In this document: piece by piece, positions 10,406-47,270 of the stretch | Numbering within the stretch: the first letter of the stretch is position 1 | Layout of the letters: each line of letters opens with the position of its first letter | Origin: Dehalococcoidia bacterium | GTDB taxonomy: Bacteria > Chloroflexota > Dehalococcoidia > SM23-28-2 | NCBI GenBank assembly: GCA_034429995.1 | Contig: DAOUEZ010000003.1 | Coordinates: forward strand, 187 to 64,186 | Reading direction: 5' to 3' | Length of the DNA stretch: 64,000 nt | The notes under the pieces: model-generated | What the model saw: only the letters and a program-made list of their open reading frames with translations | What the model was told of the DNA's origin: nothing | The model's database searches: none | Made by a program: the position numbers and the translations under genes

Positions 10406-10522
10406 GACAACCTCGAACAGAATCCAGAAAGTGCCCTTATTCTATCATATCGAGGGCTTTCCCTTGACCCTCGTGTGCCCCCTCATCTATCATAGGTTCA
10501 AAGCTAGATTTGGAGGACTTCA

Positions 10523-22890: not shown

Positions 22891-23424
22891 TTATTTATAG
22901 CCAAGCTCGGGCGAAAGGCGAACGTTACTTGGCGTAAAAGTGCCACTGCCTCGGCCGATTTCCCGCCCATCCGAGTTAACTAACACGGACTCCGCTATAA
23001 AGAAACGTCGGGAACGGTGGACTACTCGACCAGTCGCTTTGATTTTGCCTTCCGAAATGGGGCGAGTGAGGTATAGGTTGAAGGAGACGGTTAGCACAAA
23101 AGCGTCGTCAACCAGTGAGTTGACGGCGAAAAAAGCGGCGTCATCGAGCGCCTTGAAATACACCAAACCATGGACGGCGCCGCCTGCGTGAAAGAAATCC
23201 GGGCGCACCGGGATAATCACCTCTGCCTGCCCCTCGCTCACTCGCATCGTTGGGGCGTAGTATTCGTTCACCGGTGCGGAAGCATACATCCGCTCTAGCT
23301 TTCGGTAATGCTCCTCTTTGGGCAGTTCGTACCTCCTCCTGCGGTTGGCCGGCGCGGCGGCGCTCCGGATCCGGGGGGTGCCCCCTAGTCCCTGAACGAG
23401 ATTATTTCCCCGAAGTACTCCCAC
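22891..23424 (-). CDS. PaaI-family hotdog-fold thioesterase
   Basis: The region FHAGGAVHGLVYFKALDDAA is the PaaI signature. The start is uncertain; ATG 23289 is plausible. The local GC content is visibly lower (~53%) than the flanks. Confidence 0.7.
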   Translation of the reverse strand: MGVLRGNNLVQGLGGTPRIRSAAAPANRRRRYELPKEEHYRKLERMYASAPVNEYYAPTMRVSEGQAEVIIPVRPDFFHAGGAVHGLVYFKALDDAAFFAVNSLVDDAFVLTVSFNLYLTRPISEGKIKATGRVVHRSRRFFIAESVLVNSDGREIGRGSGTFTPSNVRLSPELGYK

Positions 23425-24659
23425 TCGCCATCGTGAGCCCTCAGCATCCTCATGGCTTCGGTGGCCAGGTGGTCTGTCGGGCTGAGAGTGATGGTGATAC
23501 CGGGCAGCTCGAGCTCGAGCCGGTAGTCCTTAAAGCAGTGGACGGCATCCATCAGGCCCTCTCGCGTCAGGTTGTCACAGGTCCTCCGCAGAGCCTCGAC
23601 GGTCAATAGCGCCGCCTCTTGACCGACGATGGTGAAGTTGCCGGCGGGGTAGTCCCCGTACTCGTTCATGATCCGGTGGTGCTCTGCTACGTCCGGGTCG
23701 TCAGTCCAGTGCGAGAGCTTGTTGCCCTGAAGAGTAATGACCCCCTCCATGAGCTCCGGCGAGGCATAGAGGAACATCATGGGGTCAGAATTGACGTAGT
23801 CGACGAAGAACTGGGGATGCCAGCCCAGGCGGTCGGCCTCCTTGATGAGCTGAGCAGAGGTCGGTGGGTTACTGGCGCTGACCACCACTTCTGCGCCAGC
23901 ATTCTTTAGGCTATTGACCTGGGACCGGATGCTGATGTCGGTGAGCTCATAGCTTTGCTCGGACACCAGTTCGTTCTTGTCGGGGTCGAGGCCGTTCTTC
24001 AGACCGGCCAGCACATCCTCGCCCCAGTCGGAGTTCTCGCGGAGGATGCCGACCTTCTTGCCGGGCATATTTTCGGAGATGTACTTGCCGACGATCGTCC
24101 CCTCGACATAGTAGTCCGGCAGGAAGGGAACCGACCAGGGGTACTTTTCGGGGTCCGCAGCCCACTTGTGGGCCCCCGACATGATCCACAGGTCGGGCAC
24201 TCCTCTTTCGTTGAGGTCCTCCCAGACGGCCGAATGAGCGGCCGTCCCCATGCCGGCGACGATAGCGAAGACCTTGTCTCGCTCAAGCAGCTTCTTGACC
24301 GCCTCGACCGCTTTGGCTGGGAGGTACTGATCGTCCTCCACCTTGAAGACGATCTGGCGGCCGCAGACGCCCCCTTCCTCGGCATTGACGTACCTGAAGT
24401 AGGCTTCGACGCCGCCGATGACAGGAGCGTACGCCGCCCCCCAGGTGCCGCTACGGGGGCCGTGCATCCCCAGGATTATCTCCGTGTCGGTAATGCCCTC
24501 GACCTCGCCCACAGCGGTAGGAGTGCCCGTCGCTGCAGCGGTAGGTGTGCCAGTGGGGGTTCCCTCCTCTTCTTCCTCCTCCTCGCAGGCCACTGCCACT
24601 ACCAGCAACAGCGCTGCTAGGGCGAGGAAGATCAGCGAGAATTTGCCTAGCTTCCGCAC
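23385..24659 (-). CDS. ABC transporter substrate-binding lipoprotein, branched-chain amino acid (LivJ/LivK) family
   Basis: Lipobox LVVAVAC followed by an acidic/Thr-Pro-rich linker (EEEEEEEGTPTGTPT), then a periplasmic-binding type I fold. No permease or ATPase genes lie nearby. Confidence 0.8.
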   Translation of the reverse strand: MRKLGKFSLIFLALAALLLVVAVACEEEEEEEGTPTGTPTAAATGTPTAVGEVEGITDTEIILGMHGPRSGTWGAAYAPVIGGVEAYFRYVNAEEGGVCGRQIVFKVEDDQYLPAKAVEAVKKLLERDKVFAIVAGMGTAAHSAVWEDLNERGVPDLWIMSGAHKWAADPEKYPWSVPFLPDYYVEGTIVGKYISENMPGKKVGILRENSDWGEDVLAGLKNGLDPDKNELVSEQSYELTDISIRSQVNSLKNAGAEVVVSASNPPTSAQLIKEADRLGWHPQFFVDYVNSDPMMFLYASPELMEGVITLQGNKLSHWTDDPDVAEHHRIMNEYGDYPAGNFTIVGQEAALLTVEALRRTCDNLTREGLMDAVHCFKDYRLELELPGITITLSPTDHLATEAMRMLRAHDGEWEYFGEIISFRD

Positions 24660-24918: not shown

Positions 24919-25680
24919 ATGATAAACAAGATCGTGGGCAGCTTCGATGAGGCCGTGGCCGGTATGTCAGACGGGGCCACTGTTCTCATCGCTGGGTTCG
25001 GCGGGCCGGCAGAGTGCCCTAGCTACCTGATCGCCGCCGTGGCCCGAAGAGGGGTCAAGGAGCTGACCATCGTGGGGAACACCGGCGGCTGGGGTGTGGA
25101 CCTGCTGGAGATATTGCGCCAGCGGATGGCGGTCATCCTGAAGATCCCCGAGGACTGGTACGACCCCGGCCTGCTGGTGGAGCGGGGGCAGGTGAAGAAG
25201 GGCATCCTGGCCTTTCCTGCCGCGCCCGCCCGCGTTCTCACCCCGTTCGAGCAAGGGGTGCTGCAGGGCAAGGTGGAGCTGGAGCTTCTGGGCCAGGGGA
25301 CGATATGCGAGAGGATACGGGCGGCCAAGGGGGGCATCGCTGCCTTCTACACGCCGGTGGGCGTGGGCACCATCGTGGAGGAGGGTAAGGAGGTGCGGGA
25401 GTTCAACGGCCGCAAGTACCTCCTCGAGCATGCCCTGAAGAGCGACTTCGCCCTCATCCGCGCCCACAAGGCGGATAGGTACGGGAACCTGGTCTATCGG
25501 GGGACAGCGCGGACGTTCAACCCGGTCATGGCTGGTGCTTCTACGGTCACTGTGGCTGAGGTGGACGAGGTGGTGGAGCTGGGGGAGCTGGACCCGGAGT
25601 GCGTCGTGACCCCCGGCGTGTATGTGCAGCGGGTGGTGGTGAGGCCCAAGGAGCCCAGGCCCTGGGATGAGGCCATGTAG
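24919..25680 (+). CDS. 3-oxoacid CoA-transferase subunit A
   Basis: Family I CoA-transferase alpha subunit (GFGGPAECPSYLI...ALIRAHKADRYGNL). Confidence 0.85.
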   Translation: MINKIVGSFDEAVAGMSDGATVLIAGFGGPAECPSYLIAAVARRGVKELTIVGNTGGWGVDLLEILRQRMAVILKIPEDWYDPGLLVERGQVKKGILAFPAAPARVLTPFEQGVLQGKVELELLGQGTICERIRAAKGGIAAFYTPVGVGTIVEEGKEVREFNGRKYLLEHALKSDFALIRAHKADRYGNLVYRGTARTFNPVMAGASTVTVAEVDEVVELGELDPECVVTPGVYVQRVVVRPKEPRPWDEAM

Positions 25681-25701: not shown

Positions 25702-26373
25702 ATGGCAGGCGAAAGGCTAGACGAGCAGACCATGGCCATCCGAGCGGCTAAAGAGTTCCAGGATGGGATGATAGTCAACCTGGGGGTGGGAATACCCACC
25801 TACTGCAGCAACTTCGTGCCGCCGGAGCGGGAGGTGCTGTTCCACTCGGAGAACGGGGTGATCGGGTTCGGGCCGATCATCGACAACCCCGACGAGTCCG
25901 ACGCGAACCTGATCAACGCTGGCGCGCAGCCCATATCGAGCAAGCCGGGGATGGCCATCATGGATCATGCGGAGAGCTTTTGCATCATTCGCGGCGGCCA
26001 CGTGGATATCACCGTCCTTGGGGCGGTGCAGGTGTCGGAGAAGGGGGACCTGGCTAACTACATCATCCCTGGCAAGCAGATCGGGAGCCTTGGGGGAGGG
26101 CAGGATCTGGCTTTCAGCGCCAAGAAGGTGATCGCCCTGACCACCTTTGCCACCAAGGAGGGCCAGCCCAAGATCGTCAAGGAGTGTACGCAGCCGCTCA
26201 CGGCGCCGCGGTGCGTGGGCCAGATCATCACCGATATCGCTGTCATGGACGTAACCCCGGAGGGGCTGGTGCTGCGGGAGGTGGCCCCTGGTTGGACGGC
26301 GGAGGAGGTGCAGGCCCTAACGGACGCCAGGATCATCGTGCCGCCTGACCTCGAGGAGATGACTCTGCTGTAG
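25702..26373 (+). CDS. 3-oxoacid CoA-transferase subunit B
   Basis: Beta subunit with NLGVGIPT and the SENGVIGFGP region, which carries the catalytic Glu. Confidence 0.85.
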   Translation: MAGERLDEQTMAIRAAKEFQDGMIVNLGVGIPTYCSNFVPPEREVLFHSENGVIGFGPIIDNPDESDANLINAGAQPISSKPGMAIMDHAESFCIIRGGHVDITVLGAVQVSEKGDLANYIIPGKQIGSLGGGQDLAFSAKKVIALTTFATKEGQPKIVKECTQPLTAPRCVGQIITDIAVMDVTPEGLVLREVAPGWTAEEVQALTDARIIVPPDLEEMTLL

Positions 26374-26521: not shown

Positions 26522-28525
26522 GTGATGGATGGCGAGGTGTCGGCTGAGCCGGTTTCCGAGGGCACCGTTCTTTGGCAGCCCTCGGAGGAGCAGAAAGCGC
26601 AGGCCAATATCACGCGCTATCTGCGCTGGCTGAAGGACCAAAAGGGCCTCGACTTTGGTTCCTACGACGATCTATGGGCGTGGTCGGTGAGTGACCTTGA
26701 AGGCTTCTGGGCTTCCATCTGGGATTTCTTTGGGGTGAAGGCTCACCGGCCTTCCACACGCGTGTTGGATCAGCGCCGCATGCCCGGGGCGCAATGGTTT
26801 GCGGGCGCCGAGCTGAACTACGCCGAGTACGCTCTGCAGCGGCGGGACGAGCACCCGGCCGTAGTGTTTAAGTCGGAAGTGGGGCCGCTTAGCACGCTGA
26901 CCTATGCCGATCTATATCGGCAGGTGGCAGCGGTAGCGGCGGGGCTCAGACGGCTCGGCGTTCGGCGAGGCGACCGAGTGGTGGCCTATATGCCGAACAT
27001 CCCCCAGGCCCTGGTGGCCTTTCTGGCTGCCGCCAGCATCGGTGCAATCTGGTCCAGTTGCTCCCCGGACTTTGGCATCCGTGCCGTGGTGGACCGCTTC
27101 CAGTTGATTGAGCCCAAGGTGCTTTTTGCCGCAGATGGCTACCACTACAATGGCAAACCCTATGAACGCCTGGCTGCCGTTGCAGACATACAGCGTCACC
27201 TCCCTACGTTGGAGACCACCGTGGTGGTTCCCTATCTCGATGATCAGCCGGTGACGGGGGGCTTGGGCAACGTGAAGCTGTGGGGCGAGCTGTTCGACGA
27301 AACGTCGGAGCTACTCTTTGAGCCGGTGCCCTTCGAGCATCCCCTGTGGGTGCTGTACTCGTCGGGCACCACGGGAGTTCCTAAGGCCATCGTCCAGGGC
27401 CATGGCGGGATTCTTCTGGAACACCTGAAGGCGCTCTCCCTGCACCTTGATCTGAACTCCGAGGACAGATTCTTCTGGTTCACCACCACCGGCTGGATGA
27501 TGTGGAATTTCCTGATAAGCGGGCTGTTACTAGACATGACGATCTTGTTGTATGACGGAAGCCCCGGCTATCCCGATATGCGGGCCCTCTGGCGGTTTGC
27601 TGAAGAGACAGGGATGACCTATTTTGGCACCAGCGCCCCTTACATTCTGTCGTCCATGAAGGCCGACATTGAACCTGGCCGGGAGTTCAATCTGAGCAGC
27701 CTACGGGCAGTGGGCTCCACAGGGGCGCCCCTTCCGCCGGAAGGGTTCCAGTGGGTCTACGACAAGGTGAAGAAGGACCTGCTGTTAGGTTCGGTGAGCG
27801 GAGGGACCGACCTGTGCACGGCGTTCGTTCTGTCCTGTCCGATCCTCCCGGTGCACGCCGGAGAGATCCAGTGCCGTGGCCTGGGCGCCCGCGTGGAGGC
27901 GTACGATGAACAGGGGCATCCCATAGTAGGGGAGGTGGGGGAGCTGGTTATCATCGAGCCGCTACCTTCGATGCCTCTGTTTTTCTGGAGCGATCCGGAT
28001 GGTCAGCGCTACCAGGAGAGCTACTTCGAGATGTTTCCGGGGGTGTGGCGTCACGGCGACTGGATCAAAATCGGGCGCGGGGGTAGCTGCGTGATCTACG
28101 GGCGTTCGGATTCTACCCTTAACCGCGCCGGTGTGCGGATGGGCAGCAGCGAGTTTTACCGGGTGGTGGAAGAGCTCCCCGAGGTTCTCGATAGCCTAGT
28201 TGTGGACACAGGACAGTTGGGGAGCGAGGGTCGCTTACTGCTCTTTGTAGTGCCGCGCAGTGGGGTCAGCCTGGACGAGGGGCTTCAAGCCCGAATCAGG
28301 GAGAAGCTGCGCCGAGAGCTCTCCCCCCGATACGTGCCTGATGAGATCTATGCCGTTTCTGACATTCCTCGCACACTCAACGATAAGAAGCTCGAGGTGC
28401 CGGTTAAGCGCATTCTGACGGGGACTCCACCAGAAAAAGCAGTCAGCCCAGATGCCATAAGCAACCCGCGGTCGATCCACTTTTTCATCGACCTGGCTCA
28501 GAGGCTAGAACAGGCAAGCAACTAA
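26522..28525 (+). CDS. Acetoacetate--CoA ligase (acetoacetyl-CoA synthetase)
   Basis: Shows the AACS-specific N-terminal region (DLWAWSVSDLEGFWASIWDFF) and AMP-binding motifs. The protein is 667 aa. Confidence 0.85.
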   Translation: MMDGEVSAEPVSEGTVLWQPSEEQKAQANITRYLRWLKDQKGLDFGSYDDLWAWSVSDLEGFWASIWDFFGVKAHRPSTRVLDQRRMPGAQWFAGAELNYAEYALQRRDEHPAVVFKSEVGPLSTLTYADLYRQVAAVAAGLRRLGVRRGDRVVAYMPNIPQALVAFLAAASIGAIWSSCSPDFGIRAVVDRFQLIEPKVLFAADGYHYNGKPYERLAAVADIQRHLPTLETTVVVPYLDDQPVTGGLGNVKLWGELFDETSELLFEPVPFEHPLWVLYSSGTTGVPKAIVQGHGGILLEHLKALSLHLDLNSEDRFFWFTTTGWMMWNFLISGLLLDMTILLYDGSPGYPDMRALWRFAEETGMTYFGTSAPYILSSMKADIEPGREFNLSSLRAVGSTGAPLPPEGFQWVYDKVKKDLLLGSVSGGTDLCTAFVLSCPILPVHAGEIQCRGLGARVEAYDEQGHPIVGEVGELVIIEPLPSMPLFFWSDPDGQRYQESYFEMFPGVWRHGDWIKIGRGGSCVIYGRSDSTLNRAGVRMGSSEFYRVVEELPEVLDSLVVDTGQLGSEGRLLLFVVPRSGVSLDEGLQARIREKLRRELSPRYVPDEIYAVSDIPRTLNDKKLEVPVKRILTGTPPEKAVSPDAISNPRSIHFFIDLAQRLEQASN

Positions 28526-28645: not shown

Positions 28646-29116
28646 CTAGGACACCGGTCGGAAGTACTCGATGTCGCTGATCTCCCCCTTGCGCTCGTCG
28701 CGCCAGACGGGCTCCAGCCGCATGCCGATCTTCACCGCGTCCTTGGCCTTGTCCGGATCGCTGAGGTCAACCTCGCCCAGGATATGACCCAGACAGCTAT
28801 CGGCGCCGTCCAGCTTGATGAAGAGGGTGGCGATAGGCGGCGGCGGCAGGCCCAGGAAGGGCACGTAGCAGATGGTGAAGCCCTCCAAGGTTCCCTGGGG
28901 TCCTACCTCCACCCACTCTTCGGTGGAGACGAAGCACCTCTCGCAAAAGGGGCGAGGCGGCAGGAGGACCCGCCGACACTGAGGGCAGCGCACCCCGAAG
29001 ATCTTCTTGCTGTCCCTTAGTTCCCGGAAGAAGCGGCTGGCAAACCTGCCCGCCGTATAGCGGAAGGGCAGGTTCCAGGTCCCCGGCATTACCAGAATTT
29101 CCTCTTCCTGCGTCAT
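28646..29116 (-). CDS. DUF35 Zn-ribbon/OB-fold protein (thiolase partner)
   Basis: CPQCRRVLLPPRPFCERC zinc ribbon followed by an OB-fold. Confidence 0.75.
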   Translation of the reverse strand: MTQEEEILVMPGTWNLPFRYTAGRFASRFFRELRDSKKIFGVRCPQCRRVLLPPRPFCERCFVSTEEWVEVGPQGTLEGFTICYVPFLGLPPPPIATLFIKLDGADSCLGHILGEVDLSDPDKAKDAVKIGMRLEPVWRDERKGEISDIEYFRPVS

Positions 29117-29134
29117 GGCCTTGTTCTCCCGTTC

Positions 29135-30307
29135 TTACGGCGCTTCCTTGTCCAGGATCATCAGGACATGGAAGCCGATGGCGGCACCCCAGACGTGGGC
29201 GAGGGCCGTCTTCACATTGGCTACCTGGTGCTTATCAGCCTTTCCCATCACCTGTAGGGCGGCCTCGCCTATCCGGATGAGGCCCGAAGCCCCGATGGGA
29301 TTGGTGCAGAGGGTTCCCCCGGAGGGGCAGACAGGCAGCTTGCCCTCCATGGTGGTCACGCCCTTGCGGATGAGCTCGGCCCCTTTCCCCGGCTCGCAGA
29401 AACCCAGGGCTTCACATTCGATGATCTCCTGAATGGTGAAGGCGTTGTATAGCTCGGCCACATCCAGCTCTTCCAACGGATTGTTGATCCTGGCCTCGTT
29501 GTAGACGCGCCGGGCCAGAATCGAGAGGGCCTCCCAGTCCTGGAACCAGGGGCGGTCGCCCACGTAGTAGTTGTCAGTGATCTGGCCCTCCCCCCGTACC
29601 CAAGCGGGGGTGTCCGTTATCTTGCGGGCCCGCTCCTCGGAGGCGAAGATGATGGCGCAAGCGCCGTCGGAGCTAGGGCAGCAGTCGCTGAAGCGGAGGG
29701 GCCAGGAGACCATGCGGGTCTTCAGGGCGTCCTCGACCGTCAGGTGGCGCCGAAGGTGGGCGTAGGGGTTGTTGAGGGCGTTGGCGTAGTTCTTGGCGGC
29801 TACCATTGCCAGGTCTTCCTCGGTGGTGCCGTAGTAGTGGAAGTGACTGGCGGCCTGGTTAGCACCGACCATGATAGCGCCGCCGCCCATCCAGCGCTCG
29901 TATATGGGGTCGATGCAGGTGTTGAGGACGAGCTGGGCCTCGAGGGTGGAGCCCACCCGCTGGGAGGCCACCGCCAGGACGACATCGAACAGCCCGGAGG
30001 TCACGTGGTAGTAGGCGCCGAGGGCGACGGAGCCGCCGGTGGTGCCGCCGGTGGTGAGCTTGATGAAGGGCTTATTCGAAGCGCCAGCGCCGACGCAGGC
30101 GTCCACGTTCCACCTTTCGGGGGCGAAAACGCCATCGAAGGGGTCCATAGAGCCGTAGACGACGGCGTCGATATCCTTGGCCTTCAGGTTAGTCTGGGCG
30201 AGGGCTGCGCTGACCGCCTCGTGGACCAGCTCTGGATAGGTCACATCGCGTCGGTGACTGGACGTTCGGGTCAGGCCGACACTAACGATAGCTACTCTTC
30301 TAGCCAT
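29135..30307 (-). CDS. Thiolase-domain protein (SCP-x / lipid-transfer-protein type)
   Basis: N-terminal RRVAIVSVGLT and thiolase C-terminal GGxLCTNPIGASG-type motifs. Confidence 0.75.
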   Translation of the reverse strand: MARRVAIVSVGLTRTSSHRRDVTYPELVHEAVSAALAQTNLKAKDIDAVVYGSMDPFDGVFAPERWNVDACVGAGASNKPFIKLTTGGTTGGSVALGAYYHVTSGLFDVVLAVASQRVGSTLEAQLVLNTCIDPIYERWMGGGAIMVGANQAASHFHYYGTTEEDLAMVAAKNYANALNNPYAHLRRHLTVEDALKTRMVSWPLRFSDCCPSSDGACAIIFASEERARKITDTPAWVRGEGQITDNYYVGDRPWFQDWEALSILARRVYNEARINNPLEELDVAELYNAFTIQEIIECEALGFCEPGKGAELIRKGVTTMEGKLPVCPSGGTLCTNPIGASGLIRIGEAALQVMGKADKHQVANVKTALAHVWGAAIGFHVLMILDKEAP

Positions 30308-30310
30308 GGC

Positions 30311-31462
30311 TCACCCCCGCTCCAGAATTGCCACGCAGTTGGTGGGGGCAGCAGCTCCGGCAGGGGCGCTCAGGCCATGGGCCAGGGCCAGCCTAGCTCC
30401 CGCCACCTGCCGACCGTGGGCCTCCCCCCGCAGTTGGAGGGCGGCCTCGGCAGCCCGCACCAGCCCCGAGGCGCCGAACAGGTTGGTGCAAAGAGACCCC
30501 CCAGAAGGATTGACCGGTAGCTTGCCGTCCATCTCAGTCGTTCCTTCCTCGATCAGCTTTGCCCCCTGGCCGGCCTCGGCGAAGCCCAGGGCCTCGTAGT
30601 CCATCAGCTCGTGGAAGGAGGTAGCCTCGTGGACCTCCGCCAGGTCGAATTCGTCCAGAGGGCGTTTAGTGCCGGCCATCTGATAGGCGCGTTGGGCCGC
30701 CGCAGCCAGAGAGGGGATCTCGGCCAGGTCCTTGCTGCCCATCTCGTAGCTCTCGATGGCCCAGCCAATGCCCCGGATCCAGACGGGCTTGTCGGTGATG
30801 CGCCGCACCACGTCTTCGCTGGCCAGGATGAGTGCCACGGCTCCCACCGACTCCGGCGGGCAGTCGAGTGCCTTCAGGGGGTAGGAGACAGGCCCTGAAG
30901 CAAGCACCTCCTCCAGAGAGACGGGCGAGCGCAGGTGAGCGTAAGGGTTACGGGCGCCATTGGCGCGGTTCTTGATCACCACCTTCGCCGCCTGCTCCTC
31001 GCTCACGCCGTACTTGTGCATGTAGGCGTTAGCCTGCATGGCCATGGTGATAAGGTAGTTACGGCCTACAGGGCGACTGAACAGGGCGTCGAATATGATC
31101 CTGGTCACCGCGTCGATGGCCGCCTCGCGGTGGCCGTGGCCGGCCACCAGGGCGACATCGAATAGGCCCGAGGCTATGCGCAGGTAGCCATAGACCAGGG
31201 CCATGATGCCATCCTCGGCTGCATGGCTGGAGTCCTTGAGGTAGCCGCCGATAGCCATGCAGGTATGCATATCGGAGATGGTGCGGCCATCGATGGCATC
31301 CCAGCCGGAGGCGATGACTGTATCCAGGTCGCCCCGATCCAGAGCGGCGTCCTCCAGGGCCCGCTTGGCGGCCTCGAAGTCGCTCTCGTAGTATACGTAG
31401 TGGCCCTTCGACTCTTCGTGCTTGGTCTGACCAATGCCGACGATGGCCACTCGTCTGGGCAT
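30311..31462 (-). CDS. Thiolase-domain protein (SCP-x type), paralog
   Basis: N-terminus PRRVAIVGIGQTK. A 3 nt spacer separates it from the downstream thiolase gene. Confidence 0.75.
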   Translation of the reverse strand: MPRRVAIVGIGQTKHEESKGHYVYYESDFEAAKRALEDAALDRGDLDTVIASGWDAIDGRTISDMHTCMAIGGYLKDSSHAAEDGIMALVYGYLRIASGLFDVALVAGHGHREAAIDAVTRIIFDALFSRPVGRNYLITMAMQANAYMHKYGVSEEQAAKVVIKNRANGARNPYAHLRSPVSLEEVLASGPVSYPLKALDCPPESVGAVALILASEDVVRRITDKPVWIRGIGWAIESYEMGSKDLAEIPSLAAAAQRAYQMAGTKRPLDEFDLAEVHEATSFHELMDYEALGFAEAGQGAKLIEEGTTEMDGKLPVNPSGGSLCTNLFGASGLVRAAEAALQLRGEAHGRQVAGARLALAHGLSAPAGAAAPTNCVAILERG

Positions 31463-31666
31463 ATCGTTTTCACCTCCTTTTCCGCTTGTTCATCGGCCCG
31501 CCTGCCCACAAGCAGGCGAGCAGGGAAAAGAATATCACAGATGTTTGAGATAGATAAGGCAATCGGGCCAGAGATTGAGTTCTTTTGGGGAAGAAGTTCT
31601 GATATAATGCCTGGCTGACGGCAGGCGGACCTGCCGTACATCATGTTCAGGTAAGAGGGAGTTGCC
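31463..31666. promoter_or_regulatory. Lower-GC divergent promoter region with a TATAAT box and an 8 bp hairpin
   Basis: TATAAT at 31602-31607. Hairpin ACGGCAGG-cgga-CCTGCCGT at 31619-31639, just upstream of the thiolase start at 31667. Confidence 0.3.
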
Positions 31667-32821
31667 ATGCCAGACAGAGTAGCCATCGTCGGCGTGGGCC
31701 ATACTCAGTTCAGGGCCACCAGCCCCGGCGTATCCTACAAGGAGCTCATGTTCGAGGCCGCCACCAGGGCCTACGCGGACGCCGACATCGACCCCCGCCG
31801 CGATATCGATAGCTTCGTCTGCTGCTCGGAGGACATCACCGAGGGCACCAGCATCTTCGACGAGTACGTGCCGGACCAGATCGGCGCTGCCCTCCGGCCG
31901 GTGCACACGATCGGCGGGGACGGCCTGCAGGGGCTGGCCGCCGCCTACATGCAGATCCTGACCGGCGCCTTCGAGGTGGTGGCGGTGGAGGCCCATAGCA
32001 AGGCCTCCAACATCCTCACCCCCCATCACATCCTGGCCCTGGCTCTTGACCCCATCTTCGTCCGTCCCCTGGGGGCCCATCCCCACTTCGTGGCCGGCCT
32101 GGAGATGAGTCGCTACCTGGCTCAGTCCGGCACCAGCCGCCAGCAGTGCGCCCACGTGGTGGCCAAGAATCGGGGGAATGCCTTATTCAATGATGCCGCC
32201 GCCTACGCAGCGGACCTGGAGGCGGAGGACGTCCTCGAGAGCGAGCCAGCCTTCTGGCCCCTGAGCCGCCTGGAGATCAGCGCGCCGGCCGACGGAGCGG
32301 TGGTGGTGGTGCTGGCCTCGGAGACGAGGGCCAAGGCTCTTGGCGTTCAGCCGATCTGGATTCTGGGGGCCGGCTGGTGCAGCGATAGCTCCGCCCTGGA
32401 CAGCCGGCAGTGGGGCATTGCTGCCTACGCTCGCCTGGCCGCCGAGCAGGCCTACCGCCAGGCTGGCATCAGCAGCCCCAGCCGCGAGATCAACTTCGCC
32501 GAGGTGGACGACACCTTTTCCTATAAGGAACTCCAGCACCTGGAGGCCCTGGGCGTCTTCCGGCCGGGCAGGGCAGGGGTGGAGACGGAGGAGGGTGCTA
32601 CCCAGGTGGACGGCAAGTTCCCGGTGAACCCCTCGGGAGGGAGCCTGGGCGTGGGCCATCTGGCCGAGGCCAATGGTCTGCAGAAGGTGGTGGAGGTCGT
32701 GAGCCAGCTACGAGAGGAGGCCGGGCCGCGCCAGATACCGGATGTCAAGGTGGGCCTGGCCCAATCGTGGCGGGGCGTTCCTACCGCCACGGGCGCGGTT
32801 GTCATACTGAGCAGGGAGTAA
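31667..32821 (+). CDS. Thiolase-domain protein (SCP-x type)
   Basis: N-terminus PDRVAIVGVGHTQF with thiolase N- and C-terminal domains. Confidence 0.75.
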   Translation: MPDRVAIVGVGHTQFRATSPGVSYKELMFEAATRAYADADIDPRRDIDSFVCCSEDITEGTSIFDEYVPDQIGAALRPVHTIGGDGLQGLAAAYMQILTGAFEVVAVEAHSKASNILTPHHILALALDPIFVRPLGAHPHFVAGLEMSRYLAQSGTSRQQCAHVVAKNRGNALFNDAAAYAADLEAEDVLESEPAFWPLSRLEISAPADGAVVVVLASETRAKALGVQPIWILGAGWCSDSSALDSRQWGIAAYARLAAEQAYRQAGISSPSREINFAEVDDTFSYKELQHLEALGVFRPGRAGVETEEGATQVDGKFPVNPSGGSLGVGHLAEANGLQKVVEVVSQLREEAGPRQIPDVKVGLAQSWRGVPTATGAVVILSRE

Positions 32822-32826
32822 GAACG

Positions 32827-33990
32827 ATGGGATTGCGAAGAGTGGCTGTAGTCGGTGCGGGCATGACCAAGTTCATGCGCCGCGCCCTGGAGACGGGCCG
32901 CGAGCTGTCCTGGCAGGCAGCCAGCATGGCCCTGGAGTCCTGCGATCTGACCCTTGAGGACGTCGACGGCGTGGTCATTGGCACCGCTCCTGACACCTTT
33001 GACGGCGTCCACATGAAAGGCGAGTATCTGAGCGACGGCTGCGGCGCCTGGCAGAAGCCGGTGATGCGCGGCTACGTGGGCGGCGGCACCGGTGTCTTCT
33101 CCCCCATTCAAGGCTGGTATCACGTGGCCTCTGGCCTCTTCGACGTCGTGCTGGTGGTAGGGGAAGAGAAGATGTCCTCCTGCCACCCTCATCCTCAGGG
33201 CGCTTTCCTCACCATCTTCGATAACATGCTGGAGCGTCCCCTGGAGCCCAATCTGATCTGGATCTTCGCCCTGGAGATGCAGCGCTACATGGAGGCGCAC
33301 GGCCTCAGCAAGCGAGACATCGCTCTGGTCTCGGTGAAGAACAAGCGCAACGCCCTGGATCATCCCTGTGCCCAAGTGGCGGAGGACATCAGCGTCGAGG
33401 ATGTGCTTAACTCGGAGATCATGGTCTGGCCGGTGAGCCGCCTGGACGTAAGCCCGGTGAGCGATGGTGCCGCCGCGCTGGTGCTGGCCGCGGAGCATGT
33501 GGCTAAGCGGATGACCGACAAGCCGGTGTGGATCGACGGCGTGGGCTGGCACCTGGACAGCGCCTACTGGACGAACCGCGACCTGTACTATCCCAAATAT
33601 GTGGAGTACGCCGCCCGTATGGCCTATCGCATGGCAGGCATCACCGAGCCGCGCAAGCAGATCAACGTCGTCGAGCCCTATGACCCCTTCTCCTACAAGG
33701 AGCTGCATCACCTGGAGGGGCTGCTTCTGTGCGGTAAGGGAGAGGCGGCCAAGCTCACTGCCGACGGGGTGACCCAGCGCAACGGCGACCTACCGGTCTG
33801 CCCCTCGGGTGGGCTGATGGGGGTGGGCAACCCGATCGCCGCTTCCGGCGTGATGAAGGTGGCCGAGATCTTCTGGCAGCTACGGGGAGAGGCCGGCAAG
33901 CGGCAGGTGCCTGGCAAGCCCATCACCGGCCTGGCCCAGGCCTGGGGCGACCTGATGCAGGTGGGCACAGTAGTGGTGTTGCGCATCTAG
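32827..33990 (+). CDS. Thiolase-domain protein (SCP-x type), paralog
   Basis: N-terminus GLRRVAVVGAGMTKF. The start ATG 32827 is in frame with the track ORF. Confidence 0.75.
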   Translation: MGLRRVAVVGAGMTKFMRRALETGRELSWQAASMALESCDLTLEDVDGVVIGTAPDTFDGVHMKGEYLSDGCGAWQKPVMRGYVGGGTGVFSPIQGWYHVASGLFDVVLVVGEEKMSSCHPHPQGAFLTIFDNMLERPLEPNLIWIFALEMQRYMEAHGLSKRDIALVSVKNKRNALDHPCAQVAEDISVEDVLNSEIMVWPVSRLDVSPVSDGAAALVLAAEHVAKRMTDKPVWIDGVGWHLDSAYWTNRDLYYPKYVEYAARMAYRMAGITEPRKQINVVEPYDPFSYKELHHLEGLLLCGKGEAAKLTADGVTQRNGDLPVCPSGGLMGVGNPIAASGVMKVAEIFWQLRGEAGKRQVPGKPITGLAQAWGDLMQVGTVVVLRI

Positions 33991-34011
33991 AACCAGCGGG
34001 AGGGAAGGCAA

Positions 34012-34515
34012 GTGACAACAGATAGGGAATTTCCTGGCACCCCCCTCAGCGACAGCGACATCAGCGAAGGCAAGGTCTTGATAGTGGAACACGATCCCAA
34101 CGCCCGTTACGCCTGGGACGCCGGCATCGCCATCGGGCGCTTCCTGGCCGAGCTGAAGAAGGGCCGCATCGTCGGCCGCGAGTGTCACCGCTGTCGGCGC
34201 ATTATGGTGCCGCCACGCATGTTCTGCGAACAGTGCTTTCGGCCCACCGACCGCTGGGTCGTCTTGAAGGACAGCGGGCGGGTGAATACCTACTCCATCT
34301 CCTACATCCGCTGGGACGCCAGTCGCGTCAAAGAGCCCACTATTCCCGCCGTCATCGAGATCGACGGAGCGAGCAAGGGGATGGGGATCATGCACTTCCT
34401 GGGGGAGGTAAAGCCCGAGGACGTGCAGGTGGGCATGAGGGTGAAGGCGGTGTGGAAACCACCGCGGCAGCGGGAGGGCTCCATTCTGGATATTAGATAC
34501 TTCCGCCCCTATTAG
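34012..34515 (+). CDS. DUF35 Zn-ribbon/OB-fold protein
   Basis: CHRCRRIMVPPRMFCEQC zinc ribbon. Confidence 0.75.
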   Translation: MTTDREFPGTPLSDSDISEGKVLIVEHDPNARYAWDAGIAIGRFLAELKKGRIVGRECHRCRRIMVPPRMFCEQCFRPTDRWVVLKDSGRVNTYSISYIRWDASRVKEPTIPAVIEIDGASKGMGIMHFLGEVKPEDVQVGMRVKAVWKPPRQREGSILDIRYFRPY

Positions 34516-34528
34516 GAGGTCTTGCGTC

Positions 34529-35011
34529 ATGGGTTCCCCGGAGCAGATCAGCCAGATCGAGGACATCCGCTATGTGTACGGCGCTATCCCGGTGAACTTC
34601 GCCTACACGATGGGCGTGGCCGGCGAGCGCTTCTTCCGGGAGCTTATGGAGAACGGGCGGTTCATGGGCACCCGCTGCCAGCAGTGTCAGTACACCTACC
34701 TGCCACCCCGCCTGTATTGTGAGCGCTGCTTCGCCAGCCTGGATGACCAGTGGGTGGAGGTGAGCTCGCGGGGCACCGTCGAGGCCTTCACCGTCGCCCA
34801 TCTGGACCTGGAGGGCCAGCCCGTGGCCGAACCGCAGTTGCTGGCCCTCATCCGCCTGGAAGGGGCGGACGGGCTCCTCGTGCATCGGCTGGGCGAGACC
34901 AGGGCCGAGGACGTGGACATCGGCTTGCCGGTAACGGCAGTTTTCCGCCCTCGACGGCAACGCAAAGGCTCTATTCTGGATATCCGATACTTCAGGCCTG
35001 TTGCCTCTTGA
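34529..35011 (+). CDS. DUF35 Zn-ribbon/OB-fold protein
   Basis: CQQCQYTYLPPRLYCERC zinc ribbon. Confidence 0.75.
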   Translation: MGSPEQISQIEDIRYVYGAIPVNFAYTMGVAGERFFRELMENGRFMGTRCQQCQYTYLPPRLYCERCFASLDDQWVEVSSRGTVEAFTVAHLDLEGQPVAEPQLLALIRLEGADGLLVHRLGETRAEDVDIGLPVTAVFRPRRQRKGSILDIRYFRPVAS

Positions 35012-35104
35012 GCCAGGCGAATAACTAGGGTAAGGCGGAGCATCTCCGCGTGGCGACCTTCTGGCACCTTCGAATGATGAAGGCTGTTGAAAAAGCGCCC
35101 TTGT

Positions 35105-35187
35105 TCGCCCTTCGACACGCTCAGGGCGAGCGATTTGAGGTACCTCTGCGTATCTCCGCTCGTGGTGAGCCTGTCGAACCATGAACG
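35105..35187. repeat. Hairpin repeat copy R5
   Basis: cgcccttcgacacgctcagggcg has a covarying gccc/gggc stem. The second module is ccgctcgtggtgagcctgtcgaaccatgaacgg. R5 is intergenic, between the DUF35 gene and the thiolase-DUF35 fusion. Confidence 0.8.
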
Positions 35188-35247
35188 GAGCAGGGGGTTT
35201 TCAACAATCTCGATGCTTTGCCGCTGTGAAGCCTTGAGAAATCTCCA

Positions 35248-36759
35248 ATGAAGGAACGTCAGTTGCCGATCATCGTCGGAGCGGCCCAGTACACCAATCG
35301 CTCGGATGACCTGGCCGATGCTCTGGAGCCGCTGGAGATGATGGCTAAGGTGGCAAGGGAGGCTGAGGAGGATGCTGAGTGCCGGGGGCTGCTGGGGCGG
35401 CTGGATTCGGTTGGGGTGGCCAATATTCTCTCCTGGTCCTATGGGGATGCACCTGGCCTGCTGGCGGAGGCGGTCGGTGCCCACCCGACCGATAAGACCT
35501 ACACGACCGTTGGTGCCACCGCGTCCCAGTGGTTGATCAACCGCACAGCGGAACGCATCGCTCGGGGCGAGGCTCGTCTGGCCCTGGTGGCAGGGGCGGA
35601 AGCGATGCGGTCGGTGGTGAGACTGGGGGCCAGTGGCCGGCGTGGCTGGCGGCGCGGGCGACGCTGGACAGCACCCGAGGCTATGGCTGGAGATGCCCGA
35701 GCGGGGAGCACTGACATCGAGATGCGCCACGGTGCCAATGCGCCGTTGCGCATTTACCCCCTGTTCGAGAACGCGATTCGGGCCCAGAGGGGGCGCTCTA
35801 TCGCCGATCACCAGCAGCATCTGGCGGCGCTGTGTGCCCGCCTTGCCCAGGTGGCCAAAGACAATCCGTTCGCATGGTTCCGCGACGGCAAGACGGCGGA
35901 GGAGATCGGAACGGTCACCCCCGAGAACCGCATGATCTGCTTTCCTTACCCCAAGTACATGAACGCCATCATGGAGATAGATCAGGCAGCGGCGGTGATC
36001 ATGACCAGCGTGGGCACGGCTCAGGAGCTGGGCATCCCCAAGGAGAAGTGGGTGTACATCTGGGGATGCGCCGACGCCATCGACCTTTGGTACCTGAGCG
36101 AGCGGCTTAACTACTACAGCTCGCCGGCCATGGCCCTGGTTGGTCGAAGGGCACTGGAGATGGCCGGCCTTAGCATCGATGAGATCGACTGGTTCGACCT
36201 TTACAGTTGCTTTCCGTGTGCGGTGGAGCTCGCCTGCGACATGCTGGGCATCGCGGAGGACGATCCGCGTCCTATTACCCTGGCGGGCGGCCTTCCCTAC
36301 TTCGGCGGCCCGGGCAACAACTATAGCCTGCACGCCGTGTGCGCCATGGTGGAGCGGTTGCATGGGGAGCCGCAACGCAAGGCTCTGGTATCCGCTATGG
36401 GCTGGTATGTAACCAAGCACGCTCAGGGCATCTACAGCGGGATGCCGCCAGAGCGGGAGTGGAGAAGGGCCGACTCGCCGCAGGATCAGGCAGAGCTGGA
36501 TGCCATGCCCCATCCGACCCTGGTGGAGGCGCCGCGCGGAGCTGGGGCGGTAGAAACGTATACGGTTGTCTTCGGTCGCGAGGGCGAGCCGAAGTTCGCG
36601 GTGGTGTTCGGTCGTCTGGAAGACGGCGGCAGGTTCATCGCCAATGCGGAGCCTGACCCGGATCTCCTGCGCTGGATGACCGAGGAGGAGATGGTGGGCC
36701 GCAGGGCGAAGGTGAGGCACGATGCGGAGACCGGCCGCAACATGGTGACTATAGAGTGA
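35248..36759 (+). CDS. Thiolase-like protein fused to a C-terminal DUF35-like OB-fold domain
   Basis: The first ~380 aa have a thiolase fold (ITLAGGLPYFGGPGNNYSLHAV). The last ~110 aa resemble a DUF35 OB-fold. Confidence 0.65.
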   Translation: MKERQLPIIVGAAQYTNRSDDLADALEPLEMMAKVAREAEEDAECRGLLGRLDSVGVANILSWSYGDAPGLLAEAVGAHPTDKTYTTVGATASQWLINRTAERIARGEARLALVAGAEAMRSVVRLGASGRRGWRRGRRWTAPEAMAGDARAGSTDIEMRHGANAPLRIYPLFENAIRAQRGRSIADHQQHLAALCARLAQVAKDNPFAWFRDGKTAEEIGTVTPENRMICFPYPKYMNAIMEIDQAAAVIMTSVGTAQELGIPKEKWVYIWGCADAIDLWYLSERLNYYSSPAMALVGRRALEMAGLSIDEIDWFDLYSCFPCAVELACDMLGIAEDDPRPITLAGGLPYFGGPGNNYSLHAVCAMVERLHGEPQRKALVSAMGWYVTKHAQGIYSGMPPEREWRRADSPQDQAELDAMPHPTLVEAPRGAGAVETYTVVFGREGEPKFAVVFGRLEDGGRFIANAEPDPDLLRWMTEEEMVGRRAKVRHDAETGRNMVTIE

Positions 36760-36798: not shown

Positions 36799-37575
36799 AT
36801 GAGCTTCGAGAGCATCCTCTACGAGAAGAAGGACCGTGTGGTCACGATTACTCTGGACCGGCCGCAGGTGCTGAACGCTTTCACGGTCACCATGGGTCAG
36901 GAGATGTTTGAGGCCTTCCATCAGGCTGGGGATGATGAGGACGCTGGTTGCATCGTCCTGACGGGCGCCGGTCGGGGCTTTTGCGCGGGGGCCGACGTGC
37001 GGGGATTCCAGGCCGACATCGAAAGGGGGACGCTGGGCAGTGTCCAGCCGCAGTCTGAGAGCCTCTGTCAGCTTATGTTCAACCTCAGGAAGCCGATCAT
37101 AGTCGCTGTCAACGGGCCGGCGGTGGGCGTAGGTTTCACCATGACCCTGCCCTGCGACATCCGGATCGCCTCCGACCGAGCTCGCTTCGGGCCGATATTC
37201 GTGCGCGTGGGCCTGATCCCCGAATTCGGCAGCACCTTTCTCCTGTCACGCCTGGTGGGCTTGGCCAAGGCCAAAGAACTCTGCCTCCTGGGCCGCATCA
37301 TCGAGGCGCAGGAGGCTCTGGACATTGGGCTGGTCAGCAAGGTGGTGCCCCACGAGGAGCTGATGCCCGAGGCGATGTCCCTGGCTATGGCGCTCGCCCA
37401 GGGGCCGACCCGCACCCTGGGGTTGGTGAAAGAAGTCTTGCACCAGGGGCTGGTGTCCGACCTGGCCAGCGCCGAGGCTCTAGAGGCGCGGATCCTGGCC
37501 GGCTGCGTGCGCTCGCCGGAGCACGCGGAGGGCGTTCGATCCTTCCTGGAGAAGCGACAGCCGCGATTCCACTAG
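36799..37575 (+). CDS. Enoyl-CoA hydratase/isomerase (crotonase family)
   Basis: Oxyanion-hole motif LTGAGRGFCAGADV. Confidence 0.85.
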   Translation: MSFESILYEKKDRVVTITLDRPQVLNAFTVTMGQEMFEAFHQAGDDEDAGCIVLTGAGRGFCAGADVRGFQADIERGTLGSVQPQSESLCQLMFNLRKPIIVAVNGPAVGVGFTMTLPCDIRIASDRARFGPIFVRVGLIPEFGSTFLLSRLVGLAKAKELCLLGRIIEAQEALDIGLVSKVVPHEELMPEAMSLAMALAQGPTRTLGLVKEVLHQGLVSDLASAEALEARILAGCVRSPEHAEGVRSFLEKRQPRFH

Positions 37576-37605: not shown

Positions 37606-38922
37606 CTACTCGAATGTGTACACCGGCCCGAAGTACTCCCACTTTCCCTTGCCGTCCTCCAGCACGACATGCTCCATAGGGCCGGCTTGGAGGGTATAGT
37701 GGTCGGTGTCGCTAATGGTGACAGTCACACCCTCCAGCAATAGACCACTGTGGTAGTCCCTTAGAGACTCGATGGCGTCCATCAGGCCTTGTCGGGTCAG
37801 ATTGTCACAGGTCCTGCTGAGGGCCTCGACCAACACCTCCGCGGTCAACTGGGCGTAGACGGTGAAAACACCAGGGGATGGTCCGTCGTAGTTGCGCATG
37901 ATCTCATGATGCTGGGCTATGGCCGGGTCGTCGGTGTCGTCCGGCGGCTTGAAGGCGTTGAATGAGATCAGGCCCTCTGCCAGCTCAGGGGAGACAAACT
38001 GAAACAGGATCGGATCGGAATTGGTGTAGCTAGCTAGGAATTGAGGATGCCAGCCCATGCGGTCGGCCTGTTTGATGGCCTGAGCAGTGAAACCGGGCGT
38101 GGTGTAGAGGATGACCACCTCAGCGCCGGAGCTCTTCATGTTGCTCACCTGAGAGCTGATGGAGACCGCCGTGGCCTCATAGCTTTGCTCGGAGACGAGC
38201 TCGTTCTTCTCGGGGTCGAGGCCAGCCTTCACCCCTGCCAGGCCATCCCAGCCGAGGTACTGGTTCTCCCAAAGGACGGCGACCTTCTTGCCGGGCAGAT
38301 TCTCGGAGATGTACCGGCCAAAGAAGGTCCCCTCGATGCGGTAGTCGGGCACGCCGCCAACCGTCCAGGGGTATTTGTCAGGCTCGGCACCATAGTTGTG
38401 CGCTCCCCCCGTGACGAACAGGTCTGGCACTCCCAGCTCGTTGAGGTAGGGCTGAACGCCGGAATGAGGCAGGTCGCCCACTGCTCCGAAAATGGCGAAT
38501 ACCTTGTCCCGCTCCAGCAGCTTGCGGGTCACCTCGAGGGCCTTGGCGGGGTCGTTGTTGTTGTCCTCTACCTTTAGGACGAGCTGGCGACCGCAGACGC
38601 CCCCCTGGGTCTCGTTGATCCACTTGAAGTAGGCTTGCTGCGTCTGAGGGAGCATGGAATAGACCGCTCCGAAGGTGCCACTGAGCATGGCGTGCTGGCC
38701 GAGGATTATCTCTGTGTCGGTGATGCCTGGTGCCGCTTCCCCCTCGCTGGGCGTAGCCGCTGGCGTGGCGGTGCCAGTGACGGTGGGAGTGGGGGTGGCG
38801 GCCTCCTCCTCTTCACCCTCGCAAGCTAATGTCAAAGGGATGGTGACCAGGCATGCCAAAAGCAAAATGGCGAAAAGGCTGCTACGCTTGCAGGCCATGA
38901 GTACATGCTCCATGGTTCTCAT
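37606..38922 (-). CDS. ABC transporter substrate-binding lipoprotein, LivJ/LivK family (paralog of 23385..24659)
   Basis: Lipobox LTLAC plus an acidic/TP-rich linker. The start is placed at ATG 38922, which has a GGAGGAG RBS. Confidence 0.8.
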   Translation of the reverse strand: MRTMEHVLMACKRSSLFAILLLACLVTIPLTLACEGEEEEAATPTPTVTGTATPAATPSEGEAAPGITDTEIILGQHAMLSGTFGAVYSMLPQTQQAYFKWINETQGGVCGRQLVLKVEDNNNDPAKALEVTRKLLERDKVFAIFGAVGDLPHSGVQPYLNELGVPDLFVTGGAHNYGAEPDKYPWTVGGVPDYRIEGTFFGRYISENLPGKKVAVLWENQYLGWDGLAGVKAGLDPEKNELVSEQSYEATAVSISSQVSNMKSSGAEVVILYTTPGFTAQAIKQADRMGWHPQFLASYTNSDPILFQFVSPELAEGLISFNAFKPPDDTDDPAIAQHHEIMRNYDGPSPGVFTVYAQLTAEVLVEALSRTCDNLTRQGLMDAIESLRDYHSGLLLEGVTVTISDTDHYTLQAGPMEHVVLEDGKGKWEYFGPVYTFE

Positions 38923-39074
38923 CCTTACTCCTCCGCATACGAGTCTAGCAGCATTGTAGACTGATAGCACTCAATGTCAACCATCAGCCAGGCCTTGACC
39001 ACGGCGGCGCTCAGATTGAAAGATCTGTTGCCCATGCTATACTAGCTATGTCAGGAGAGGAGGGGTTCTGAGGA

Positions 39075-46689: not shown

Positions 46690-46700
46690 GCTCTCTCCTC

Positions 46701-47183: not shown

Positions 47184-47270
47184 CTCGCTACCTCCTCGGT
47201 CAAGCCTTGCATCTGCCTGAAGGAGCATACCTCAGGCAAGATAAGCCGTCAATCAATTGGGGGCGAAGGC

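Follow-up and report, generated by a model that had tools for sequence, protein, structure and literature searches.

The window, that is, the whole stretch of 64,000 nucleotides analysed here, originates from a Dehalococcoidia bacterium (contig DAOUEZ010000003.1) and includes a mirror-image cluster of genes encoding thiolase-fold and DUF35 proteins. The open reading frame (ORF) listing and the Pfam and NCBIfam scans identified nine genes in the cluster, all at the positions and on the strands given by an earlier reading of the same DNA, the first-pass annotation. Two modules were distinguished, both ordered beta, alpha, DUF35. Module M2 on the minus strand is composed of thiolase-like B (383 residues, 30311-31462), the presumed non-thiolytic partner subunit, thiolase-like A (390 residues, 29135-30307), the presumed catalytic subunit, and DUF35m (156 residues, 28646-29116). 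Module M1 on the plus strand is composed of thiolase-like C (384 residues, 31667-32821), thiolase-like D (387 residues, 32827-33990), DUF35p1 (167 residues, 34012-34515) and DUF35p2 (160 residues, 34529-35011). Also on the plus strand are a TLP1-family thiolase-like protein with a C-terminal OB-like barrel (503 residues, 35248-36759) and a crotonase-family enoyl-coenzyme A (CoA) hydratase (258 residues, 36799-37575; PF00378, 2e-62).

The thiolase-like proteins matched Thiolase_C_1 of Pfam at 1e-30 to 1e-33. C scored 488 bits with PRK06066 and D 669 bits with PRK06065 (cutoff 455). The listed ORF of D begins at a GTG at 32767, but the true start is most likely the ATG at 32827, which is preceded by GGGAG and yields a protein of the same length as the homologues. 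The three DUF35 proteins of the first-pass annotation were all recovered, each with both Pfam domains (zf-ChsH2 and OB_ChsH2_C) and the CxxC...CxxC zinc ribbon. The E-values of the OB domain varied from 1e-10 to 1e-14. In DUF35m the ribbon is C44xxC47...C58xxC61, and the two domains matched PF12172 at 8e-08 and PF01796 at 2e-10.

Alignment to solved SCP2-type and archaeal thiolases (Pyrococcus furiosus 7yvy, zebrafish 6hsj and BbsB 7pxp) revealed that the nucleophilic cysteine is missing from all five thiolase-fold proteins, A, B, C, D and TLP1. The true thiolases have the nucleophile loops AACASGG (7yvy), NNCSTG (6hsj) and SACSAG (7pxp), together with HD[AC]F and the histidine of the GHP motif. 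In A the loop reads TTGGTTGG with Gly88, the HDxF position is occupied by YNAF (Tyr287) and the GHP histidine position by Asn336. D resembles A, with the loop YVGGGTGV (Gly86), YDPF (Tyr285) and Asn335 (GNP). In B the corresponding features are HAAEDGIM, HEAT (H278) and Asn327, in C TIGGDGLQ, DDTF (D281) and a retained histidine, His331, and in TLP1 VGATASQW (Ala90), YSCF (Y319 and C321) and G354. The HDxF and GHP histidines were not present together in any of the five, B keeping only H278 and C only His331. A displaced nucleophile was also sought, and the loop proved to be free of cysteine in all five cases. The cysteine of a CPSGG motif in A and D, the single one linked to a class, was considered as a replacement nucleophile and rejected, as it occurs in just 5 of 26 alpha-class members. 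Orthologues of A at 72-92% identity retain the motifs of A.

In a DUF35-associated ACAT, the change of the HDxF histidine to tyrosine nearly abolishes thiolase activity (PMC12960953). It is very unlikely, as judged from these residues, that A-D and TLP1 work as usual thiolases or condensing enzymes. The first-pass annotation had taken A-D as four thiolase paralogs that might form an assembly cleaving or condensing C-C bonds; the thiolase fold holds for all of them, whereas the thiolase residues do not, and a condensing enzyme of the usual kind is no longer supported. The inspection of the catalytic triads that it had proposed proved to be the key analysis. Four complete triads had been named there as the outcome speaking against an unusual complex; none of the four proteins keeps the triad, which is the opposite result.

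The residues found instead are partly those of proven aldolases. In the thiolase-fold aldolases Ltp2 and Sal the catalytic base is a tyrosine, Tyr294 of YDHF and Tyr302 of YDCY, respectively, and in Sal the nucleophile position is occupied by glycine (PMC12329534). As A and D have a tyrosine where the base of Ltp2 and Sal lies, and a glycine as in Sal, they match the aldolase signature in its first half, that is, a tyrosine base and a nucleophile site without cysteine. This half is also found in the whole alpha class described below, and it is absent from B and C. The combination of tyrosine and cysteine in the Y-D-C-Y/F motif of Sal and SLP is absent from A (YNAF) and D (YDPF), and TLP1 alone has both residues.

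The sequence of D was used to search 1.8 billion representative proteins, and the three catalytic positions were read in 104 near-full-length matches. These fell into three groups: true thiolases (C / HD[AC]F / H), an alpha class and a beta class. The alpha class has glycine at the nucleophile site in 96%, tyrosine in 100% (by that classification) and asparagine in 82% of its members. The beta class has an aspartate beside the former nucleophile position in 90% of its members and a conserved aspartate, arginine, tyrosine and tryptophan of its own; B and C lack both the nucleophilic cysteine and the alpha tyrosine. A two-residue insertion with a proline is common to the alpha and beta classes and absent from the true thiolases. 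In a rough neighbour-joining tree the two classes formed separate clades, A and D belonging to alpha and B and C to beta, and each module thus includes one alpha and one beta protein.

The AlphaFold (AF2) model of D had a predicted local distance difference test score (pLDDT) of 85.8 and showed the SCP2-type thiolase fold. In the Foldseek search it matched 7yvy, 4yzo, 7pxp, 6hsp and 6et9 with template modelling (TM) scores of 0.81-0.87. Two loops of D, 57-67 and 122-140, were nearly invariant over 60 aligned sequences and yet had pLDDT values below 50. They may be contact surfaces, perhaps becoming ordered only once the complex has formed or substrate is bound.

The 503-residue protein had been described in the first-pass annotation as a thiolase-DUF35 fusion. 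It matched PF18313 (TLP1_add_C) at 3e-17 and TLP1 of Mycobacterium smegmatis (4egv) at 4e-83 across residues 4-494, and with PRK08257.1-3 it scored 575 bits, without reaching the cutoff of 654. It has no zinc ribbon and neither of the DUF35 Pfam domains. A fusion with DUF35 was ruled out by the PF18313 and 4egv matches together with the missing ribbon, so the locus includes three DUF35 domains and not the four counted earlier. The general shape assumed for the fusion was nevertheless correct, only the family was not, since the extra domain of MsTLP1 is a six-stranded barrel resembling single-strand-DNA-binding proteins (PMC3406046). When the C-terminal barrel was compared with a profile of 137 DUF35 sequences, it aligned to the OB half, but weakly, with an hhalign probability of only 34%. 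The window protein has the same extra C-terminal barrel as M. smegmatis TLP1 and a conserved DLYSCFP stretch, with no notable difference between the two, and MsTLP1 has no thiolase activity (PMC3406046).

TLP1 is separated from DUF35p2 by a gap of 236 bp (35012-35247, 56% GC), in which no Rfam family was matched. The gene is retained in relatives without M1 (L005, L010), and therefore TLP1 and the crotonase gene probably form a separate transcription unit. The crotonase gene was found 3' of TLP1 in four loci (L008, L010, L023 and L025), of which L010 is one of the two without M1.

The neighbourhoods of M1 were compared in 80 metagenome loci and several genome loci. Genes were called with conservation weighting, and adjacency was counted only where the contig was long enough. 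C was immediately 5' of D in 63 of the 70 loci, DUF35p1 followed 3' of D in 75 of 79, and DUF35p2 came next in 64 of 69. Compared with the window proteins, D had a median identity of 78%, DUF35p1 of 63%, C of 61% and DUF35p2 of 51%. No other protein of the locus was as conserved as D, which showed 71-94% identity in 87 loci and 199 database sequences, and the xVGGGTG, EPYDPF and GNP motifs were retained in nearly all of the 199 distinct orthologues. In one locus (L001) D was 78% identical to the window protein and the essential GTPase EngA only 56% in the same comparison.

M1 stands on its own as a unit of four genes in Anaerolineae, Dehalococcoidia, Humimicrobiia (Actinomycetota) and unclassified bacteria, and the named sources of D orthologues also include Candidatus Methanofastidiosia archaea, Deltaproteobacteria and Armatimonadetes. 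Between the Dehalococcoidia bacterium and archaea, including methanogen-related lineages, D is 71-78% identical. The M1 loci with D at 71-74% were assigned to archaeal contigs because RadA, family-B DNA polymerase and PurP share those loci. The plasmid search found no D orthologue, all the matches having less than 40% identity. In two of the loci (L055 and L056, approximately 10001-11158) additional conserved ORFs (clusters c106, c65, c102 and c69) were called in between the four M1 genes, either as real insertions or as an artefact of gene calling.

A natural fusion of a D-type subunit with both DUF35 units was also found (P0122, 731 residues, in a cluster of 27 proteins), and it supports a physical complex of D with the DUF35 proteins. 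This agrees with the earlier view that thiolase-fold and DUF35 units of this kind form obligate complexes. In the annotation of hundreds of genomes of Chloroflexota, Actinomycetota and archaea, genes of this kind bear the name 'acetyl-CoA C-acetyltransferase' or 'thiolase domain-containing protein', and metabolic reconstructions may consequently take them for thiolases of beta-oxidation or butyrate metabolism.

The closest relatives of the window were Dehalococcoidia metagenome-assembled genomes, with 88-92% protein identity for A, and a DUF35 gene was located 3' of the A gene in every M2 locus. The mirror arrangement with M2 beside M1, reported for the window in the first-pass annotation, is also present in some other lineages (L008, L012, L017 and L025-L032). 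It is not general: in the close relatives L005 and L010 (L010:6415-8634) the place of the M1 half is taken by a thiolase-like protein of a third cysteine-less kind (NGGATG, HDAF, GHA), with both histidines kept, and elsewhere M1 and M2 occur independently of each other. Adjoining the third-kind protein is a 333-residue protein that has a zinc ribbon like that of DUF35 and is extended far at its C-terminus. Since the two modules are separate in other genomes, the single assembly of four thiolases and four DUF35 domains proposed earlier was rejected. DUF35 partners were found to be common in this lineage, as had been foreseen as a possible objection; their commonness makes the locus less rare but leaves the active-site finding unaffected.

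In the archaeal loci (L085-L102, L103 and L104) the position held by M2 in the window is occupied by a true thiolase of the SCP2 type (AACASSG, HDCF, GHP), accompanied by a DUF35 gene and divergent from M1 (e.g. L103:6273-7914, minus strand). In L103 this pair is flanked by a three-gene biotin acyl-CoA carboxylase and by methylmalonyl-CoA mutase with MeaB. Because a true thiolase with DUF35 adjoins it, M1 is no simple stand-in for the thiolase in these loci.

The metabolic genes next to the cluster were largely as described in the first-pass annotation. A ScoA/ScoB-type 3-oxoacid CoA-transferase (24919-25680 and 25702-26373, plus strand; TIGR02429 and TIGR02428 above cutoff) and an acetoacetate-CoA ligase (26522-28525, plus strand; NF002937, 983 bits with a cutoff of 639) adjoin M2, their genes being convergent with it. 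The reported aryl-CoA ligase was not supported, as the best scores of the gene were with fatty-acid-CoA ligase models and below cutoff. M2 is linked to the acetoacetate-CoA ligase and ScoAB also in the close relatives (L005-L011). The distant M2 loci have the order acyl-CoA dehydrogenase, B, A, DUF35, and in L015 the genes B-A-DUF35-ScoA-ScoB all have one direction and are followed by a GAF histidine kinase with a LuxR regulator.

Repeatedly encoded near M1 were an acyl-CoA dehydrogenase of Bcd/AcrC-like type (15 loci), a CoA-transferase of two subunits, A/B (8 loci), and crotonases. M1 was followed by acetoacetate-CoA ligase or a relative of it in L042, L055 and L056, and an ADP-forming acyl-CoA synthetase was present in L042 and L051. 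These neighbours point to short-chain acyl-CoA and acetoacetate metabolism and not to an aromatic or sterol substrate, both among the candidates listed earlier.

The best cultured homologue of A was found on plasmid pLP1 of Rhodococcus qingshengii, with 42% identity for both A and its DUF35 protein. The genes around it encode a MaoC hydratase pair, two acyl-CoA dehydrogenases and a thiolase-like protein that is degenerate. The layout is that of the steroid igr operon, in which dehydrogenation, hydration and aldol cleavage take place in succession.

Thiolase-fold aldolases with DUF35 are already known as steroid-acting homodimers on the DUF35 domain of a hydratase, namely Ltp2-ChsH2 and Sal-Shy. 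Ltp2-ChsH2 of Thermomonospora curvata (6ok1) resembles the modules in having an SCP2-type thiolase fold without the nucleophilic cysteine, a tyrosine at the HDxF histidine position and a DUF35 partner, and it acts after acyl-CoA dehydrogenase and hydratase. It differs in that Ltp2 forms a homodimer and the DUF35 partner is part of the MaoC hydratase ChsH2, whereas here two unlike subunits are combined with free-standing DUF35 proteins; moreover, the context is steroid for Ltp2 and short-chain here, and the sequence relation is distant. The bile-acid aldolase Sal-Shy of Comamonas testosteroni (9myr) and the trypanosomal SLP share with the modules the glycine in place of the nucleophile, the tyrosine base and the DUF35 partner, and with the window TLP1 the tyrosine and cysteine (YSCF). 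In A-D, however, the motifs YNAF, HEAT, DDTF and YDPF have no cysteine, and Sal is a homodimer on the DUF35 domain of the hydratase.

The DUF35-associated true thiolases (7yvy, 6esq and 7pxp) are the nearest in sequence and fold, and they have the zinc-ribbon/OB DUF35 subunit and the gene adjacency in common with the modules, but they retain the cysteine, HDxF and GHP. An archaeal thiolase/HMGCS/DUF35 complex of the mevalonate type was ruled out, as the cluster genes include neither a 3-hydroxy-3-methylglutaryl-CoA (HMG-CoA) synthase domain nor a catalytic thiolase. The benzoylsuccinyl-CoA thiolase BbsAB was ruled out on score (BbsB model 87-159 bits against 750, BbsA 19.6 against 250).

Wilbrink and co-workers are said to have proposed in 2012 aldol-lyase roles for the adjacent Ltp3/Ltp4 pair of actinobacterial sterol catabolism. 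This pair is similar in that two adjacent thiolase-like genes of the SCPx type, unlike each other, are involved, with cleavage of a branched 3-hydroxyacyl-CoA as the proposed reaction, and it might be related to the modules. The cluster proteins scored 94-178 bits with the NCBIfam lipid-transfer-protein models (cutoffs 419-436), which we presume, on length alone, to be based on Ltp3/Ltp4.

No description of an alpha/beta heteromer of cysteine-less thiolase-like proteins was found in the full-text literature, subscription journals being outside its coverage. The locus differs from the known thiolase-fold aldolases in the pairs of unlike cysteine-less subunits, the free-standing DUF35 proteins, the altered second catalytic residue and the short-chain context in anaerobic Bacteria and Archaea. 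The cysteine-less thiolase-fold enzymes known so far are steroid side-chain aldolases of aerobic Actinobacteria and Proteobacteria, while here the same active-site change is present in a large alpha/beta radiation.

With moderate confidence, we interpret the locus as two independent thiolase-fold C-C lyase modules, that is, DUF35-scaffolded alpha/beta heterodimers which would cleave 3-hydroxyacyl-CoAs by retro-aldol chemistry. The DUF35 proteins, two in M1 and one in M2, would hold the alpha and beta subunits of each module together, D with C and A with B, respectively. The alpha tyrosine, as in Ltp2 and Sal, would deprotonate the 3-hydroxyl of the 3-hydroxyacyl-CoA, leading to retro-aldol cleavage, with acetyl-CoA and a carbonyl compound as the products, or to the reverse addition. 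The beta subunit would be a structural partner or the bearer of a second activity. The lyase would be fed from a short-chain acid that the flanking CoA-transferase or ligase would activate, the acyl-CoA dehydrogenase desaturate and the crotonase hydrate, the crotonase being a candidate supplier of the 3-hydroxyacyl-CoA. TLP1 would represent a third, monomeric relative with a Sal-like tyrosine/cysteine pair. Once worked out, the reaction of M1 would supply a missing piece of carbon metabolism in uncultured microbes that are abundant in sediments and the subsurface, and it would bring a new heteromeric architecture to the thiolase superfamily.

Several observations weigh against the retro-aldol lyase. 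The position of the second catalytic tyrosine of Ltp2, Tyr344, is occupied by asparagine in A, B and D and by histidine in C, when Tyr344 is placed on the GHP histidine by the +50 spacing derived from PMC12329534 and not by direct alignment to 6ok1. The equivalent of Sal Cys304 is proline or alanine in the alpha subunits, and no general acid was found. In sequence, A-D came closer to the true thiolase 7yvy (1e-42 to 1e-45 for A, B and D, 2e-28 for C), while Ltp2 was matched only at 1e-18 to 1e-25. The fold cannot decide between aldolase and thiolase because thiolases, SLP, Sal and Ltp2 all match within the same TM range. Also the deep alpha/beta split fits imperfectly, as A-B and C-D are 40% identical compared with 36% for A-D and 35.5% for B-C. 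The conserved M1 core has no hydratase, the activity of alpha and beta is predicted from residues and the heterodimer is deduced from gene order. Finally, M1 sits by its neighbourhood at the expected place of a thiolase, and its sequence would be compatible with cysteine-independent thiolysis.

As a special case of the retro-aldol lyase, at least one of the modules could be a thiolase-fold analogue of HMG-CoA lyase, cleaving HMG-CoA or a similar tertiary 3-hydroxyacyl-CoA to acetyl-CoA and acetoacetate. The acetoacetate would then be re-activated by acetoacetate-CoA ligase or ScoAB, and the dehydrogenase and crotonase would be isovaleryl-CoA dehydrogenase and methylglutaconyl-CoA hydratase. 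The chemistry of Ltp2, in which a tertiary 3-hydroxyl gives a ketone and an acyl-CoA, is alike (PMC12329534). In its favour, M2 keeps its link to ScoAB and a bona fide acetoacetate-CoA ligase in different lineages and orientations, and M1 is followed by the ligase or a ligase-like gene in three loci and by CoA-transferase in eight. Against it, acetoacetate enzymes would suit equally any pathway ending in acetoacetate or acetoacetyl-CoA. The dehydrogenase scored best with butyryl- and acryloyl-CoA types, below cutoff, and the crotonase has no equivalog assignment. In archaea M1 lies beside the true thiolase with DUF35 and the three-gene biotin acyl-CoA carboxylase. Methylcrotonyl-CoA carboxylase is absent from the window and most loci. 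The recurring link to acetoacetate-activating enzymes makes the HMG-CoA lyase an attractive guess, but because this required carboxylase is not in the neighbourhoods, it is considered unlikely. A wider proposal, which we hold to be improbable, is that M1 is an unrecognised central-metabolic enzyme of anaerobic Bacteria and Archaea, a thiolase-fold heterotetramer free of cofactor and cysteine, making or breaking a C-C bond of a small universal acyl-CoA, with the beta subunit adding a second activity such as hydration. The candidates for its reaction would include a thiolase-fold HMG-CoA lyase and an aldol route between acetyl-CoA with a C2-C4 carbonyl compound and a 3-hydroxyacyl-CoA. If the second activity, possibly based on the conserved Asp/Arg/Tyr set of the beta class, were hydration, it would account for the M1 core without a hydratase.

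The loss of all the canonical catalytic residues would also suit complexes that are not catalytic but serve as acyl-CoA-binding scaffolds or carriers, organising or regulating a dehydrogenase, hydratase or thiolase in the manner of DUF35 in the archaeal fatty-acid synthase complex. Assemblies of several enzymes are mediated by DUF35 (bioRxiv 10.1101/2024.07.05.601840), and the two conserved loops of D left unplaced by AlphaFold would be as expected for interface segments. On the other hand, the tyrosine at the aldolase base position is invariant throughout the alpha class, an identity of 71-94% over two domains of life would be unusual for a pure scaffold, and the module often stands alone, without enzymes to organise; we give this explanation little credence. 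Least probable of all is that the modules are true acetoacetyl-CoA thiolases, acting by thiolysis or Claisen condensation without an enzyme cysteine, with a direct attack by CoA inside a ternary complex to which the two subunits and DUF35 would give its shape. The modules do occupy the place of a thiolase beside acetoacetate-CoA ligase, ScoAB, the Bcd-like dehydrogenase and the ADP-forming acyl-CoA synthetase, no true thiolase was found among the annotated window genes, and the very high conservation of D befits a central enzyme. However, the cysteine is required in every studied thiolase, the histidine-to-tyrosine change inactivates the DUF35-linked ACAT, and the tested cysteine-less relatives MsTLP1, Sal and Ltp2 are non-thiolases; moreover, archaea keep a true thiolase with DUF35 beside M1.

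The modules M1 and M2 diverge from an intergenic region of 204 bp (31463-31666) with two short GC hairpins. Its GC content is 51%, while that of the cluster and the window is approximately 64%, and it is flanked by strong Shine-Dalgarno sites, AGGAGG and GGGAG, one for each first gene. The single lower-GC spacer of about 200 bp described in the first-pass annotation is therefore present; as for its role as a divergent promoter region, a simple promoter scan scored no consensus sigma-70 promoter. A 28-nt inverted repeat, 82% complementary, straddles the spacer (31425-31452 and 31677-31704). It was ruled out as an operator, as it represents the mirrored N-terminal coding sequence (RVAIVG.G) of the paralogues B and C. 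The Rfam scan of window positions 20000-46000 gave no match.

A pair of hot-dog proteins is encoded approximately 9 kb from the cluster (46255-47228, minus strand), one HadB-like (MaoC-type) and the other with a FAS1_DH_region domain. The pair resembles heteromeric (R)-hydratases such as ChsH1/ChsH2 or HadAB and could be the missing hydratase. The crotonase scored below the cutoff of every NCBIfam equivalog. On either side of the cluster, at 23385-24659 and 37606-38970, a LivJ-type periplasmic binding protein (Peripla_BP_6) is encoded, both genes being on the minus strand and with no permease genes adjoining, and the two proteins may hint at an imported acid. Past 39 kb the window continues with housekeeping genes (pyrB-like, cdaA, ybbR, engA and plsY). 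On the other side, beside comEC/comEA, a 666-residue protein (15811-17811, minus strand) combines numerous TPR repeats with a nuclease-type domain, Shedu SduA_C (PF14082, 2e-15), at its C-terminus, and it is possibly the product of a defence gene.

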